NCBI GenBank assembly: GCA_020137815.1
Contig: CM035357.1
Location: 992,001-1,056,000 of the forward strand
Source: Hormiphora californensis
Lineage: Eukaryota > Animalia > Ctenophora
Reading direction: 5' to 3'
Length of the DNA stretch: 64,000 nucleotides
Of the stretch, positions 50,446-60,206 are shown one piece after another. Position numbers and translations under genes: made by a program. The notes under the pieces were generated by a model. It was not told the DNA's origin. It saw only the letters and a program-made list of their open reading frames with translations, and made no database searches. Each line of letters opens with the position of its first letter. Position 1 is the first letter of the stretch.

Positions 50446-51735
50446 CTGTAACTTTATAGGATAAAGCTTGCGTAATCATTGAAATCTATGTATTATTATG
50501 ATCAGTTTTTAACTATCTAAATGACTGACCAAGACAGACACAAGACAAGCGTAGGGCCCTCCAATGTGCACTGCTCTCCCTTGAATTTTCAAGGGAGTTC
50601 GTACGGAGGGTTCCAGGCTATGCCGTCTATACCCGGGTGGTATGAGACTTGGTACGCCTTAGCTTAATGCCCCAAAAAAAAAAAAAAAAAAAAATAAGGT
50701 TCAGAGCCAAGAGTAGGGCAGCACCGGGCAGCAGGAAGCAGAGTGTGGCAGTTTCTCAGAGTGGGAGGAGTTGGGGAGGGTGGATAAAAGCTATGAGGGG
50801 AGGTGACCGAGCTGAAAAACATTCTGAACCAAATGTAGATGTGTAATGGTTGGACAATAATGTTTTGTAATTGTTGGATAATACTGTTTTGTAGCTGTAG
50901 ATTCAGCAAATTGTAATGTATATTGTAAATACATAGCCTTATTTAACAGCTTGTCTCAGGGCCTTAAAACTAATATGTTTTTTGTTTTATTTTCCAAATT
51001 GGTTGCTTAGCAACCTCTAGTTAGTGGCTGGAAATCGGAATGATGGAAACATGTACGAAAGAGACCGGTGACCTATTAAATCGGAAAAACCGCACTTCCT
51101 TGAAATCTTAGGCCTTAGCTTGTTTTGTGAAATTTCCTCTCAGTAGTAACTCGTAAACTGTCTGCCTTCCAAATGTACTGTCTGCCAAATGTCTGCCAAA
51201 TGTACTGTCTTCCAAATGTACTGTCTGCCAAATGTACTGTCTGCCAAATGTTCTGCCAAATGTACTGCCAAATGTACTCTCTGCCAAATGTCTGCCAAAT
51301 GTTCTGCCAAATGTAATGTCTGCCAAATGTCTGCCAAATGTTCTGCCGAATGTCTGCCAAATGTACTGTCTTCCAAATGGCTGCCATAAATGTCTGCCTT
51401 CTAAATGTCTGCCATAAATGTCTGCCTTCTAAATGTCTCCTTCCAAATGTACTAAATCATCCAGCTTGCCCTGCTTACCCCACCCGTACCCCCTCCAGAG
51501 GCCTTCCCCGGTTTGAACAAAACAACCTCCGGCCTCCTTGGCCATTATGTGATTCTAACAGCTGATGATTTATAGTTTTAACACACTTCTCAAATTGAAC
51601 TACTGCTACTGCTGATGATTTATAGTTTTAGCACACTTCTCAAATTGAACTACTGCTAATGATTGGTGTCTCCTTGTGAGTATCATAAAACTGATAATAT
51701 AGACTGAAAAACCACCGTATAATAATTACCAGGAC

Positions 51736-53034
51736 ATGGCTATATTTAGTGAGGGTGGCACCTCACTCCCGGATTTCCCCCTCATGGTGAGTTTCCTCCT
51801 TCTTCCCCTCATTTCAATACCCCTCAACTGCCTGGTTCTCTATCACAATCACAAGAAACGATCCTCAGTCGCCCGAACTCTTTTCCTCATCCTCGCCGTG
51901 GTTGATCTAATTGCGTGCCCCTATCTTGCATGGAGACAAGCTCTCGGGCTGTGGAAACCGAAAGATCAAGACTGTTGGTCAAGCGATCAGAAGGGAATTT
52001 GCTCGGAACGGTATTACCTTTATATGCAGCAGAATGGAACGATTCCCTGTGCAGTTTATACCATCGGCATGTGGTTTGTCTCATATGGGCCGATACAAAT
52101 CACTGGTTTTCTTAGTCTAGCGAGATTGCTACAAGTGACCCAACCCCTCCGACGGATTCGCAGACGTTACTTCGTTGAACCTCTACTCGTATTGTTTAGC
52201 CTCAACATTATCCCATTTGTTGTCGCGTATCCCTTAAACTGGCCAGAATCTGTCATATTCACGACTTATTCACAGACGTGTAATCTGATGCTTGGATCTA
52301 CAATTGGCGGTTTCTACTTTTCAAGAACTCAGTTTGTACAATTCTACGGCTCAGTAATTGCAACAATTCAGGTTATTGGAGTGGTCTCAAGCGTTCTGAC
52401 ATTATGCTACATGGCATGGATATTCAAAAACCCGGTATCAGCTACTTCACCTCGTTCAATTAAAGGGACGCTGAAGATTCTGCTAATGAACACTGTTAGC
52501 TTAGTTAGCTTCGGTCTTGTAAGTCTGATAAACATTCTTTACTCGACCAGCAACCTACAACCATCGAGAACTTGGGAAGACCTCACCGTAGAAATGGGTG
52601 AACGGACATTAACATTTACTGTTCTCTACTACATCACCATACTGGTGACCCCAGTGGTTAGTTCAGCATTAAACCCAGTCATTTACCTTGCTCTGACTGA
52701 AGATGTGAGAGGGAGGCGAGTTAGATCGAAAAGCTCAGTATTTGGATCTAATCGCGGTAAAAACTCTACGATAAGAGTTAGAAGTATGAGAAATACCCAG
52801 ATAAATCCAATACACAGGCCAACAAGGGTCACGTATAACGGCAATCTAGAACGTATCTTTCTACATGAAAAAGTGCTGAAACCTATACAACAACACGATG
52901 AAGTCAAGAGTTTTGTGGCTCGCACTGTCTGTGATCAGGGTTCCGTGGATCAAGTCAAGAGTTGTGTGGCTCACACTGTCTGTGATCAGGGTTCCGTGGA
53001 TCAAGTCAAGAGTTCCTTACCACCTGTCGTTTAG
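51736..53034 (+). CDS. Intronless rhodopsin-class (class A) orphan GPCR
   Basis: Seven hydrophobic segments; TM1 PLN, TM2 LAVVDL, TM3 LSLAR (DRY variant), TM7 ALNPVIY; 16-aa repeat in the C-tail. Confidence 0.9.
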   Translation: MAIFSEGGTSLPDFPLMVSFLLLPLISIPLNCLVLYHNHKKRSSVARTLFLILAVVDLIACPYLAWRQALGLWKPKDQDCWSSDQKGICSERYYLYMQQNGTIPCAVYTIGMWFVSYGPIQITGFLSLARLLQVTQPLRRIRRRYFVEPLLVLFSLNIIPFVVAYPLNWPESVIFTTYSQTCNLMLGSTIGGFYFSRTQFVQFYGSVIATIQVIGVVSSVLTLCYMAWIFKNPVSATSPRSIKGTLKILLMNTVSLVSFGLVSLINILYSTSNLQPSRTWEDLTVEMGERTLTFTVLYYITILVTPVVSSALNPVIYLALTEDVRGRRVRSKSSVFGSNRGKNSTIRVRSMRNTQINPIHRPTRVTYNGNLERIFLHEKVLKPIQQHDEVKSFVARTVCDQGSVDQVKSCVAHTVCDQGSVDQVKSSLPPVV

Positions 53035-53865: not shown

Positions 53866-55200
53866 TAATAATAACAGAATTTATATACACGCTCAGACCC
53901 CGTAGGGTACCAGAATCCAGAAAACACTAGTACTACGGAGCTTCAGAGCGGTTCACCTCTGTATATAAAACCTAAAACTCTAGATAAACTATAGAAACAA
54001 AAAATGTCCATCTAGTAAAAAGTCCGGTGCTCAGATGCTCAAAGTCCAGTAACAAAACCTAGTCAAAATCATAAACACAAACATAACCAACACAGTTCAA
54101 TACGCTCACGTTCACGCCCTCACACCACCACCTCCATAACCTTGCCTCCTCTTATCCCAAAGGTCTTGCCTGGTGCCGCCGCCTTCCTCTCCTTTAGCTC
54201 AGCCACCAACTTCCTCCTCTCCTCTCTCTCTTCCGGGGAACGGTCCGGGGAGATGTACAGATCTTTATACCTATCCGACTTCTTCAGACCACTTTTGTGG
54301 GACAGGATCAGATCTCGAAATTCACGGCCAGACAGGCGCAGTTTAACAGGTCGGTCAGTACCCTCCTTGTACCTTCCGAGACGCGTCATGCTGTAAACAC
54401 TAGTCACACATTCACCCATGTAGTCGAAAACTCCACAAACTGAATGTTCCAGATCTTTACTACTTTCACTGGGATCATCAAATAGTCCATGGACAATCAC
54501 GTTACTTGTCCTGTCCTCTGTAGCACTCGTTATTGCAGTACGAATACGTTTCGGAGCTAGAGCACTGTCACAACTCTTTTTCAGAACTGAGGAAAACGTC
54601 TTTATCTCCTCTTCGGCAATAGACTGCACAGCAGTAATCTCCTTATCTCGCTTCCCTAACAACTCACACTGCAATTTAACCAGCTGCCCCTGTGCCTCAA
54701 CCAATGCTCGCTGAGAAACAATCAGCTCCTCTTGACTATCCAGTAGTTTCCTCTCATTGTCTTCAACTTCAGTACTCAGACGGTCGAGCAACGGGTAACA
54801 CCTCTCCATCAGGAAACGGCACACTTTCTCTGTGAAATCCTCTAGTTCTGGCTTCTTTATCCCCTTGATCTTACTCTTGCTTGGACACTTCAGGCTATCC
54901 CACACACTACGTCCGGCAGTCAAACTCTTCGGGAAGGAATCCTTGATACCAGCATGTGTAAACAGGTCCCGTACCAGGTCAAATAACTCGCCCTGCACTT
55001 CACCATACACGCCTCTCTGTACCCTTTCATCACTATAGACTCTCAGCCGGTCTTTGAAACTACAAGCAGAGGCTGTACTACCACTCATAGCAGGAGAGAT
55101 AGATATCTCAAATTAATTTGTTTAAAGTAGTGTTGAAAAGTTTGAAATAACACTAAAAATATTTAAATCGCTTTGGAGCGAAAAGTGTTTATCTCGATCA
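53831..55200 (-). mobile_element. Non-LTR element encoding only ORF1 (CDS 54120-55088, 322 aa) with a (TTA/TTTA)n tail
   Basis: Coiled coil, RRM-like NVIVHGL..RLGR..RPVKL, and YISPDRSPEEREERRKL, typical of CR1/L2-type ORF1. Short 3'UTR then a microsatellite tail at 53831-53874. 5' end approximate. Confidence 0.75.
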
Positions 55201-55313: not shown

Positions 55314-55590
55314 TTACACACACTCTATTAATCCCTTTCTAAGTCTATATTGTTTATCTGAATTTTCACTCCTTAATCTTTTCAGGGACTCAAGAGTTTT
55401 ACGTCTCAACTCCCTCTCCTCAAATGTCCTGTCCGGACCAATGTACACATTATGAAAATTATCCGACTGTTTCAGCTCCTTTGCCTTCTTCAACAAGGTT
55501 AACAGATTCTCCCTCGACGACAGGGTGGCAATCATTGGCCGAGTCTTGTTCTCAGCTTTTGGTCCAACACGCTTCACGTCGGTGATACAC
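55314..55590 (-). mobile_element. Truncated ORF1 C-terminal fragment of a related LINE family
   Basis: RVGP..RPMIATL..VYIGPDRTFEERELRRK parallels the neighbouring ORF1. Confidence 0.7.
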
Positions 55591-56043
55591 GCACAATGCG
55601 CCAAATTCCAAGAATTACGGGTCAAGTCGCTTGAAACGGACTTTAGGCTTATGTTTGATAGGAAATCTCAAGCTCTAACCCCAACCCCGACTCCAATCCT
55701 AATCCTAACCCGGCCCTACTTTAGCGCTAAACAAACCATGACTCATGAGTGTGAAAAAATCAAAAGGTTTGAGTCAAAACAGCCAGATTTTTGCCCCGTT
55801 TTGACTTTTGAGCGCGAGCCGAGGAATTTCAAATATTCTGCATTTGAAAATCCGGCGTACAGCGTAAAACGCGAAATTATATACGACTGCGCTGCATTTT
55901 CATGCGCGCGTAGTTATTTCAGTCGTAGGTGTTCAAGATTTGAATGTCGCGTTGGATGAGATCCATTTGCTGCCGATTTCGAAAGACGTGTCCCTTTTCG
56001 AATCCCTCAAATTCCTAATTTGTTGTCACTTGTCACTGTCGCC

Positions 56044-59000
56044 ATGCAGTCAACCATCTTTGTTTTGGCCCTTTTGGCTGTAGCAGCTGCTAAATACGAC
56101 CCTAAAAACTGTGAAGGTAGGTGACACACGGTACAACACACTTGACACTGACCACTGACCGACATGTTATCACAACATAATTTACACAATCGTGTATAAA
56201 CCAATGTACCATATCTTTCTATTGTTTACGTGTTGGCTTGGTTTGTGCAAATATGTGGAAATAAATGGAAGCTCCTAGCAACCTAACAACAGAAGGTTAG
56301 TGTAACAATCCTGCTTGAAATTCCATCCCAATTTGCTGTTTGACCTTTCACTAACATACGAACCTTGGTTATTAGCAATGCTCAGTTACGAGTCGAGTTT
56401 GTTTCTGGCGGTGGTCGGATCACTCCTATTCGCCGGATGTGCGTGGCTGTTCAGTTTCGGTAACAGTGTCGATATGTTCGATGAACTTAGACGGATGGAT
56501 AAGCGACAGGTGAGGAAAAGAGAAATATATTTTCCTATTTTAGAAGTGTTTTAGTATAGTGATAGAGTGTTACCCCTCCATTATAACTCGTTTTCCGTAG
56601 CTCAGTTCCTTCCATTCATATAACCCCGCCCGTGGTATTCTTCCCTCACTTTCCTTCCCTAACCTCACCTAACCTCACTATTCCTCCTTGCTACTCCTCC
56701 CCTAACCTTACGATCCCTCACCTGACCTCACCTAACCTCATTATTCCTCCTTGCTACTCCTCACCTAACCTCACTATCCCTCACCTCACCTAACCTCACT
56801 ATTCCTCCTTGCTACTCCTCCCCTAACCTCAAGATCCCTCCCTGACCTCACCTAACCTCACTATTCCTCCTTGCTACTCCTCCCCTAACCTCACGATCCC
56901 TCCCTGACCTCACCTAACCTCACTATTCCTCCTTGCTACTCCTCCCCTAACCTCACGATCCCTCCCTGACCTCACCTAACCTCACTATTCCTCCTTGCTA
57001 CTCCTCCCCTAACCTCACTATCCCTCACCTGACCTCACCTAACCTCATTATTCCTCACTATCCCTAACATCATCTAACATCATTATCCCTAACCTCATCT
57101 AACCTCATTATCCCTCCCCAGGTGATTTACCAGTTCCTAAACTTTGCAATGATTGTCAGTTCAGCTCTAATGTTGTGGAAGGGCCTCTTTGTGGTAACAC
57201 ACTGTGAGAGCCCCATTGTCGTCGTCCTCTCTGGCTCAATGCAGGTTAGATATACATTTATTATTGGGAGAACTGGGTACATTTTGGTCGCCTTTTTTTC
57301 CTTCTTTCTTATGCTCTGTTATCTCTCCCCACTCTGTCTTCTCTTCACAGCTACGTGTAATATACTCTCACTAACACCCCTCCCCCGGTTTCTCTCACTA
57401 ACACCCCTCCCCTTACAGCCGGCGTACTACCGTGGTGATCTGCTGTTCCTGTCAAACTACCCAGAACCAATTCGAGTTGGTGAGGTTGTGGTGTTTAGGA
57501 TCCCAGGACGAAACATTCCAATTGTCCACCGAGTCCTGAAGGTCCATGAGAAGGATGATGGGTAGGTGATGCGTGTGTTTGTTTGTTTGTGTGTTTTTTG
57601 TGTTTGTGTGTGTGTGTGTGTTCTGTTTTTTTGTTCGATAAAATTATTCTCTTTGGCCCCTCCACAATCACTGTTTTCGTACCAGTAAAGATTCAGTATT
57701 GAGAGTTGCGGTTCTTCTACATTTTAGTCTCCTTCCACCTTATCCCCAAATTGGGGCATCCCCAATCCCCATTCCCCAGTCCTGCTTCAGTAGCATCTTC
57801 TGGAGTAGCATCATTTCACTGTTTATACAAGATTAACCACATTGAAGTTCACCCCCCCCCCACTCAGATACGTGAAGTTCCTGACTAAGGGCGACAATAA
57901 CAACATTGATGATCGTGGTCTGTACAGCGAGGGGCAACTGTGGCTAGAGGAGAAGGATATTATCGGTCGTGCCAAGGTATAGAACACCATCCCTTATATC
58001 ACCTAATGTCATCCAATATCACCCAATATCCCCCTCTCGCGTTATCGGACGTGCCAAGGTCAGAAACACCCCCCTAAGATCACCTAATGTCACCCAATAA
58101 ATTACCACCACACACAAATTCTATCCAGGCTGATAAATTATTTGTTGGAGACCTAATTATTCCTTTATCGGCATTATTTTCTTTCATCTCAAGTCCTCTC
58201 CCACTACTTCTTGAGAAGGGAGAATTCCCCCTATAATCTGTATACAGGGAGAATAATCCCTATCCATACAGGTCCACCTTGGGACGCCACCTTCTACTAC
58301 TAACCTCACCCTTCCCCCTCTCTCACAGGGCTACCTTCCCTTACTACCTACTAACACACCCCTCTCTCACAGGGCTACCTCCCTTACTAACACACCCCTC
58401 CCCCACAGGGCTACCCCCCTACTACCTACTAACACACCCCTCCCCCACAGGGCTACCTCCCCTACTAACACACCCCTCTCCCACAGGGCTACCTCCCCTT
58501 ACTACCTACTAACACACCCCTCTCCCACAGGGCTACCTCCCCTACTAACACACCCCTCTCTCACAGGGCTACCTCCCCTACTAACACACCCCTCTCCCAC
58601 AGGGCTACCTCCCCTACTAACACACCCCTCTCCCACAGGGCTACCTCCCTTACTATCACACCCCTCTCTCACAGGGCTACCTTCCCCTACTAACACACCC
58701 CTCTCTCACAGGGCTACCTCCCCTACGTTGGAATGATGACTATTTTGATGAACGATAAACCCAACCTGAAATATGCTCTTCTTGGTCTTCTTGCCCTGTT
58801 CGTACTGATCAAACGAGAACAATAAACCAATGTTATACACAGCTGCTGCTTGGAATTGTTGTGACACAGCTGAGAACATGTTGCCACTTTGATGCACAGC
58901 TATAATAGGTTAAGCTCTAAATACTGGGTTCCCAATGTCCATCTTGCTGTTATGGAGGGTGCTTACCGCTGCTTTGAAGAGGAAGAGGAGGATTCTTTAT

Positions 59001-60206
59001 TCGTATAAACACGTTTAATTTTATTTAATTTGTCATATCCACACATAATATCCATTCTCAATGTTTCACCAAGGTGTCTCTTTAATGTTTTGAAAACTAA
59101 ACTACATCCACAACATGACAAACTTACAATATGACAAAGTAACAACCAACACACTACCATTACTTCCTATAATAAACCCCCTCCCTCTCTCTCTCAGTTT
59201 GTGTTACCTTCCTGGGTAAATTCAGAACTCAATTGGACGCCCTTGATGCCTCCGTTCAATCTAGCCCTGACAAGATTGAGAGTGAGCTAAGGAAGGCCTG
59301 CAAAACTAAGCAACCCAAAGATGAACGATTCGTAAGTGATACAATGATTTTGTTCTGAACAAGTCAATTTGTTCCGATCTTTACTCAATAAATATTTTAC
59401 CTTGTTTCAACTCTCCCTCCTCCCAATGTACCTTTACTACCAATTGTTAACTCTCCCCTCCTCCCAGTATATTCTATAACCAACTCTCCTCTCCTCCTAG
59501 TGTTGGTATATTGGAGCCACTGAGACCTCCCTTTACTACTTACTACCTAAACAATTGTTAACTCTCTCCCCTCCTCTCCTCCCTAGTGTTGGTATATTGG
59601 AGCCACTGACACCTCAGCTACTGGCATGACTCAAGTTGTAACTAAGCCAATGAGCTTCCACAAGCCCGTCGAGAAAATCTGTGGTGACCTGTACAAGAAA
59701 GACGCCCAGATTTGCGACCTCAAATACGGTAAGAGATTGTGTGTTTGACGTCGATTGCTTTTTCGTGTGTGTAGAACTACAGAGATAGCCAGTATGTGTT
59801 CCCATTCGATGCCTCTAAATTTAATGGCACTGAAGGGCATGAAGCAAGAGCCGCGCGCGAACTAGCAAATGAATGACTCAAGTGTATGAAAAGTACAGTG
59901 CGATGCAGTTGGTGCGCGCGGCGCTATGTGTTATACGTCAGCGTATACATTTGCTGTACATTGTACAATGTGTACATCCCTCCCCCATTTTGTACATTCC
60001 ATCCAACCCTCATCTAACCTCCATCCCATTTCTTTCCAGAAAAACAAATCGATCTGAAGACAGTGAACATCAAGAAACTGAAGGTGAAAGACTTGAGGAA
60101 GATCCTAGAACAGAACGGCCAAGATTGCAAGGGTTGCAGTGAAAAGAGTGAATTCGTTAAGAAAGTGGAGGCTATCGCTAGGGAACAGGGCAGAACTGAA
60201 TTGTAG
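56044..60206 (+). CDS. MANF: MANF/ARMET (MANF/CDNF family) ER-stress protein, 4 exons
   Basis: Exons 56044-56116, 59198-59331, 59587-59728 and 60040-60206. Signal peptide, CE|VC, RF|[28 protein letters not shown]|EKQIDL, CKGC, C-terminal RTEL. Missed by the ORF track. Confidence 0.95.
56378..58825 (+). CDS. SEC11: Signal peptidase complex catalytic subunit SEC11, nested in MANF intron 1 on the same strand
   Basis: Exons 56376-56509, 57122-57244, 57419-57561, 57868-57976 and 58712-58825. Motifs: [14 protein letters not shown] (Ser), RGDLLFL, IPIVHRV (His), [26 protein letters not shown]. The stop overlaps AATAAA. Confidence 0.95.
56655..57118 (+). repeat. CCTAACCTCAC-rich minisatellite (about 60-bp unit) filling SEC11 intron 1
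   Basis: Direct reading; many CTAAC branch-point-like motifs. Confidence 0.85.
58295..58726 (+). repeat. About 36-bp minisatellite made of the SEC11 last-exon acceptor junction
   Basis: About 10 extra copies of CTAACACACCCCTCTCCCACAG|GGCTACCTCCCCTA before the true acceptor at 58711. Confidence 0.92.

Follow-up and report, generated by a model that had tools for sequence, protein, structure and literature searches.

In the ctenophore Hormiphora californensis the gene for SEC11, the ER-type enzyme of family S26B that cleaves off signal peptides, lies inside an intron of MANF. The reading we favour, with a probability of roughly two in three, is that this nested SEC11 carries a conserved 32-residue N-terminal extension translated from position 56378, that its mRNA is leader-trans-spliced, and that the extension adds an extra N-out membrane helix (TM0) to the enzyme. 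The variant of SEC11 is real, conserved and apparently undescribed. Nesting and spliced leaders are already known in ctenophores. All positions refer to the window, i.e. the whole stretch of 64,000 nucleotides that was analysed (contig CM035357.1, positions 992,001 to 1,056,000).

SEC11 is nested in intron 1 of MANF

MANF intron 1 contains the whole SEC11 gene in the same orientation as MANF itself, and both genes are spliced in the RNA contigs. The locus comprises the following features:

56044..56116 (+), coding part of MANF exon 1, signal peptide, ends in phase 1
56117..59197 (+), MANF intron 1, 3081 nt, GT..AG; a joint skipping 3081 bases is found in X2 (oligo-dT RNA)
56349..56375 (+), acceptor region: branch-point-like CACTAAC, then the AG at 56374-56375, a likely trans-splice acceptor two bases before the ATG
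56378..56473 (+), 32-codon extension of SEC11, TM0 hydrophobic segment at about residues 7-26
56474..56509 (+), remainder of SEC11 exon 1, with the amphipathic NTS helix and then a basic linker leading to TM1, from the human SEC11A/C alignment
57122..57244 (+), SEC11 exon 2: TM1 and catalytic Ser motif; RNA joints
57419..57561 (+), SEC11 exon 3: catalytic His motif; RNA joints and contigs
57868..57976 (+), SEC11 exon 4: Asp motifs; RNA
58712..59042 (+), SEC11 exon 5: C-terminal helix, coding to 58825 with the stop at 58823-58825, RNA cover to 59042
59198-59331 (+), MANF exon 2; RNA joints
59587-59728 (+), MANF exon 3; RNA joints
60040-60206 (+), MANF exon 4; RNA joints

SEC11 is thus a parallel nested intronic gene: one X2 joint skips 56117-59197, and SEC11 joints are present in the RNA runs X1, X2 and X3. 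MANF exon 1 is covered by RNA from 56005 to 56116 in an X2 contig that runs onward into MANF exon 2; the 5' end of this contig resembles library adapter and is therefore uninformative on MANF's own 5' end. The MANF product of 171 aa contains 8 Cys and ends with RTEL at the C-terminus. Pfam assigns ARMET_C above the cut-off and ARMET_N, on a single exon, just below it. The search for MANF relatives returned a Pleurobrachia bachei model as its sole match, which is 98% identical over one exon. A near-copy of the MANF exon 3 acceptor together with the first bases of the exon is found at 59495-59530 (+) in intron 2, about 87 bases upstream of the one used.

The RNA cover of SEC11 stops at 59042, about 155 bases ahead of the MANF exon 2 acceptor, so that 3' processing of SEC11 would fall inside the MANF intron, where it may compete with MANF splicing. 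An internal promoter may lie within 56117-56375. For H. californensis 2357 nested genes in 1654 hosts have been reported, many of them parallel to the host; the main text of that report, in the part available to us, leaves the processing of parallel nested genes open and names neither MANF nor SEC11 (PMC8527503). According to the accessible part of a further source, no operon had been reported from ctenophores up to 2021 (PMC7986045).

SEC11 consists of five coding exons encoding 206 aa without an internal stop, and all of its introns are of the GT..AG type. Three of the four junctions are listed as RNA joints, and a single X1 contig spans exons 3, 4 and 5. Intron 2 (57245-57418, +; 174 bases) is open in frame and is spliced out in the RNA contigs. 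The end of intron 4 (58300-58715, +) holds 11 tandem copies of a unit made up of acceptor and exon start, and the RNA joints use the last copy.

All catalytic motifs are intact when aligned to the human chains via the relative P0024 (SGSM at 81, IVHRV at 120, KGDNN at 140, IDDRG at 146). The S24/S26 profile of Pfam was found on the relatives P0003 and P0007. The NTS helix, TM1 and the short C-terminal helix are present in the alignment as well as in the P0024 model (helices 34-38, 42-70 and 175-205). In comparison with human SEC11A and SEC11C (7P2P, 7P2Q, 9RJB), the sequence matches with E ~1e-82 over residues 19/30-205, and the P0024 model (mean pLDDT 60) has the signal peptidase I fold, matching 7p2q_A and 7p2p_A with E ~1e-13; the NTS, TM1, the Ser/His/Asp motifs and the C-terminal helix are common to both. 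The difference concerns the N-terminus. Ahead of the NTS the human proteins are short and polar, whereas the ctenophore protein has a hydrophobic segment of 19-23 residues, so that the short polar cytosolic N-terminus of a SEC11 is replaced by the 32-residue extension. Human SEC11C is described, in the portion of the paper at hand, as having 12 extra N-terminal residues that are predicted to be unstructured (10.1101/2020.11.11.378711).

The extension is conserved as protein

The original prediction of an open, hydrophobic frame upstream of 56474 was confirmed: stop-free translation of 56378-56509 gives the 32 residues and the next 12, followed by a GT donor, and the hydrophobic stretch, predicted at about 20 residues, extends over residues 6-28, i.e. 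23 residues free of D, E, K, R, H, N, Q and P. Its best 19-residue Kyte-Doolittle mean is about 2.13-2.2, compared with 1.79-1.93 for the canonical TM1 in the relatives, and its hydrophobic moment is 0.36, compared with 1.65 for the stretch of the NTS helix.

Over its first 44 residues SEC11 agrees at every position with a Pleurobrachia bachei model (100% identity), which, with the MANF match above, identifies the window as ctenophore DNA. Using these 44 residues as query, 7 clusters with 84-100% identity were obtained among 14 candidates; of their 31 members 28 were listed and read. The searches for relatives took proteins of 78-2000 and of 113-361 residues. A full core is present in 18 of the 28 relatives, and 14 of these 18 begin at the Met of the extension. 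The other four full-core proteins comprise two cut within the extension, one that starts at MFDE (P0011) and one that starts inside TM1; the latter, the RefSeq model P0009 from Bolinopsis microptera, is an exact suffix of the extension-bearing P0010. Compared with P0024, P0010, P0016 and P0003, the extension is identical at 29, 28, 24 and 29 of 31 positions, respectively, and the remainder of SEC11 at 156-164 of 174. No stop interrupts the extension in any relative row covering it, and in one group it has one additional residue at its beginning. In P0006 and P0012-P0014, four relatives of genomic type, 19 in-frame residues ending in Arg lie upstream. These may reflect a different acceptor spacing, one out of phase with MANF exon 1, and were given no weight.

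Nine loci were recovered, two of which (L001 and L002) are spliced transcripts of relatives and were analysed; the other seven (L003-L009) are weak partial matches of 38-77% and were left out of all analyses. The comparison of substitution rates called for by the original prediction gave an extension pN/pS of 0.105 against L001 (pS 0.77, pN 0.08) and of 0.222 against L002 (pS 0.89, pN 0.20), and for core exons 2 and 3 the values against both transcripts are 0.058-0.126. Between L001 and L002 the ratio is 0.40; this way of counting inflates pN where Ser codons switch. Synonymous sites are near saturation (pS 0.66-0.89) and the residues are kept. In X3 the four listed differences in exon 1 are all synonymous; a looser stretch of 30 bases has seven differences, and its nine whole codons, translated by hand, give the same residues. 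Judged by these codon comparisons, selection on the protein sequence constrains the extension nearly as much as the enzyme core. A chance open frame can be dismissed, because relatives with 84-98% identity were found and the substitutions are mostly synonymous, and the extension is almost certainly translated.

Start codon and 5' end of the SEC11 mRNA

The ATG at 56474 had been regarded as the canonical-looking start. This does not hold, as its Met aligns within the NTS to an internal residue of the human proteins (Ile or Phe of SEC11C/A) and is thus not the orthologous start. That ribosomes initiate at 56474, with the upstream frame untranslated or incidental, would agree with the G at -3 that this ATG also has, with the invariance of its Met in five alignment rows and with P0011, which is called from this Met; but the extension residues are kept while synonymous sites approach saturation, and a scanning ribosome reaches 56378 before 56474, which makes such a start most improbable. 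Translation from 56378 would be compatible with an additional short isoform produced by leaky scanning. The second option of the original prediction, namely a start at 56378 with the helix as a standalone N-out anchor, has turned out to be the best reading, the N-out orientation being predicted.

Upstream of this start the mRNA may begin with a spliced leader or with MANF exon 1. The leaders of Hormiphora are described, in the part of the source available, as being 35-48 bases long, ending in TGAG and occurring on 56% of the Iso-Seq reads (PMC8527503). Joined at the AG at 56374-56375, a spliced leader would place a G at -3 and, in frame ahead of the ATG, a TGA, with which nothing upstream of 56378 would be translated. 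A stretch of 41 bases identical to the published leader occurs in the window at 55107-55147 (-), and setting this copy at the AG yields TGA-GCA-ATG. The transcript L002 begins with 30 AT-rich bases ending in TTGAG, followed by CC-ATG, and one codon upstream of the ATG it has a TGA in frame. Aligned to the published Hormiphora leader, its 5' end scores 24 with 20 of 27 columns, a score reached by 102 of 5000 shuffles, and three control stretches score 8-12; the match is modest and hints at a divergent leader. In L001 the 533 bases upstream end in a pyrimidine-rich stretch and an AG before CC-ATG; this transcript is without a leader, ends in an A run and is possibly a precursor awaiting trans-splicing. 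Both transcripts have the two-base spacing between acceptor and ATG seen in the window. In the contigs of this species, which drop rare forms, no junction between a leader and 56376 was found; X1 covers exon 1 from 56455 only, X2 does not cover it, and the X3 contig was read except for its 23 most-upstream bases.

In the original prediction a cleavable signal peptide from MANF exon 1 was placed in front of SEC11, with the new helix as the stop-transfer segment that rescues the topology. In such a transcript MANF exon 1 would be cis-spliced to the AG at 56374-56375, the signal peptide would be cleaved, and the final topology would be the same. The fit in frame that the idea requires does exist: with its phase 1 end, MANF exon 1 can be joined to this AG without a stop, the donor precedes the acceptor by 259 bases, and between 56200 and 56480 only the AGs at 56300 and 56375 are in frame with it. 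However, a fit in frame is expected by chance in one of three cases, and the two-base spacing kept in L001 and L002, which would suit this joint, equally places the last G of a leader at -3. The sole contig over MANF exon 1 (X2) continues only into MANF exon 2, and a junction from 56116 to 56376 is absent from all three RNA runs, in which cover is thin. None of the 28 listed relatives has a MANF-type signal peptide start, and the leader-like 5' end of L002 has its in-frame stop before the ATG. The about 533-535 upstream bases of L001 show no likeness to MANF exon 1, a weak test given how short the exon is. We regard cis-splicing from MANF exon 1 as distinctly improbable, and the inference of a MANF signal peptide on SEC11 is most likely wrong. 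A rare fused MANF-SEC11 isoform may still exist, as the RNA evidence consists of contigs and the best run has no cover of SEC11 exon 1. The main 5' end of SEC11 is very probably a leader rather than MANF exon 1, and the mRNA is likely to be leader-trans-spliced and translated from 56378.

Topology and possible role of TM0

In human SEC11 the N-terminus is cytosolic and includes a short amphiphilic helix; a single membrane helix near the N-terminus and a lumenal catalytic domain with a Ser-His-Asp triad complete the picture, according to the part of the study consulted (10.1101/2020.11.11.378711). In substrate-bound human SEC11A, as described in the available portion of a further report, the NTS helix forms a lid by packing against the CTS helix, which spans the membrane, and it stabilises bound signal peptides (PMC13385932).

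For the ctenophore enzyme we propose that TM0, the first hydrophobic segment to emerge, would insert so that the N-terminus, which is short and acidic, faces the ER lumen, and that the 18-residue loop with the NTS helix would stay cytosolic; TM1 would then insert as usual and leave the catalytic domain lumenal. The number of membrane helices in the enzyme would rise from two to three (TM0, TM1, CTS), with TM0 tethering the NTS lid to the membrane. Here TM0 would most likely stabilise the lid and the C-terminal helix around the bound signal peptide, or it could pack on the SEC11-SPCS2 bundle; a role at the lid or window is a tentative suggestion.

That TM0 is an N-out span is probable. The orientation follows from the need to keep the catalytic domain lumenal, since with an N-in TM0 the loop would end up lumenal and the enzyme upside down. 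N-out insertion is favoured when, as here, a long hydrophobic segment follows a short N-terminus that is free of basic residues. The flanking charges (-1 before TM0 and -1 to -2 in the next 15 residues) are unbiased and do not favour it. In the P0024 model helix 4-26 is separate from the NTS (34-38) and from TM1 (from 42), which supports TM0 as a separate helix at the level of a predicted structure; the pLDDT is below 50 over most of TM0, so that the model is uninformative on packing.

The absent charge bias and the low model confidence would also suit an extension that is translated but forms a re-entrant or cytosolic-surface helix, or is clipped after insertion, with TM1 alone setting the topology. 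Clipping has a parallel in human SEC11C, which loses up to nine N-terminal residues as far as the accessible part of the study reports (10.1101/2020.11.11.378711), and by eye the small residues A, G and C in the segment resemble a cleavage region. A full span is, however, indicated by 23 uninterrupted non-polar residues, the low hydrophobic moment and a hydrophobicity above that of TM1, and, given the known topology, cleavage in the manner of a signal peptide would leave the next loop on the lumenal side and so invert the enzyme. We consider these alternatives unlikely and retain TM0 as an N-out membrane span.

Distribution and origin of the extension

A SEC11 database search returned 1821 matches, the best 120 of which were examined, and 118 of these are without the extension. 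Most of the best matches are from animals (among them a calcareous sponge, corals, worms, molluscs and arthropods), and fungi, plants and protists are barely present. The SEC11 proteins without the extension among the best matches are 59-76% identical over the core. Among these best 120 of 1821, none of the 115 parsed matches without the extension exceeds 1.6 in an upstream window of 19 residues; short polar N-termini are present in the three unparsed ones. Searching 1.84 billion representatives with phmmer yielded six matches, five of which are relatives with 84-98% identity, and the sixth is an unrelated leucine-rich-repeat protein.

In a tree computed from the core only, with hand-picked rows (13 extension-bearing and 25 other), all 13 extension-bearing rows fall on one branch with 100/100, in a bootstrap that is not fully settled. 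This pattern fits a single gain on the branch leading to the extension-bearing sequences, of which the only two named members are both ctenophores. Neither Pfam nor the search of the representatives nor the Atlas, which gave no usable match, indicates a donor protein for TM0. The only Pfam match for TM0, to LapA_dom, is sub-threshold (E 0.1).

The LepB protein of E. coli has two N-terminal membrane helices, the first of them N-out, and its catalytic domain follows the second. The match of the catalytic-domain folds is distant (E 0.05-0.18), and LepB differs in being a monomeric bacterial enzyme. As neither Pfam nor phmmer on the representatives gives a sequence link between TM0 and LepB, any likeness would be convergent.

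Significance for signal peptidase and nested genes

In the literature covered, which was mostly open-access and confined to papers outside the Hormiphora supplements, we found no description of an extra SEC11 helix in ctenophores. A sponge paper in which ctenophore models were blasted describes no extra helix in the part seen (PMC6850559). The architecture of SEC11 is otherwise nearly invariant among the examined matches, and a conserved variant with a membrane helix on the NTS lid offers a test of lid and window function and of species differences between the complexes. Such differences in cleavage rules are described for yeast and human complexes in a source whose available part leaves ctenophores unmentioned (10.64898/2026.09.20.752496). 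A far-reaching view, of which we are doubtful, would be that signal peptidase was rebuilt in ctenophores: a lineage-wide extra helix on the NTS lid at the transmembrane window would set phylum-specific cleavage rules, perhaps replacing a helix of an accessory subunit. SEC11 and MANF would then form a nested ER operon transcribed from the MANF promoter, with MANF splicing in competition with leader trans-splicing and intronic polyadenylation.

The locus is a compact test case for the processing of same-strand nested genes in ctenophores. It also demonstrates that gene models miss parts: the SEC11 model of Bolinopsis begins only within TM1, that of Pleurobrachia continues into intron 2, and the Pleurobrachia MANF model is without exon 1.

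Neighbouring features in the window

Upstream of MANF an intronless ORF of 443 codons (51703-53034, +) with several hydrophobic segments is GPCR-like by eye and has no Pfam match below E 0.25. The leader copy at 55107-55147 (-) precedes the ATG of an intronless ORF (54120-55088, -; about 322 codons) by 18 bases, and no GT donor follows the copy; together, copy and ORF look like a trans-spliced mRNA that was re-inserted, and not like a leader RNA gene. This ORF has no Pfam match below E 0.01, and by eye it is similar to a retroelement ORF1. Just upstream of MANF an open frame of 117 codons (55314-55667, -), for which Pfam gave no significant match, is similar in appearance to the C-terminal portion of the ORF at 54120-55088.
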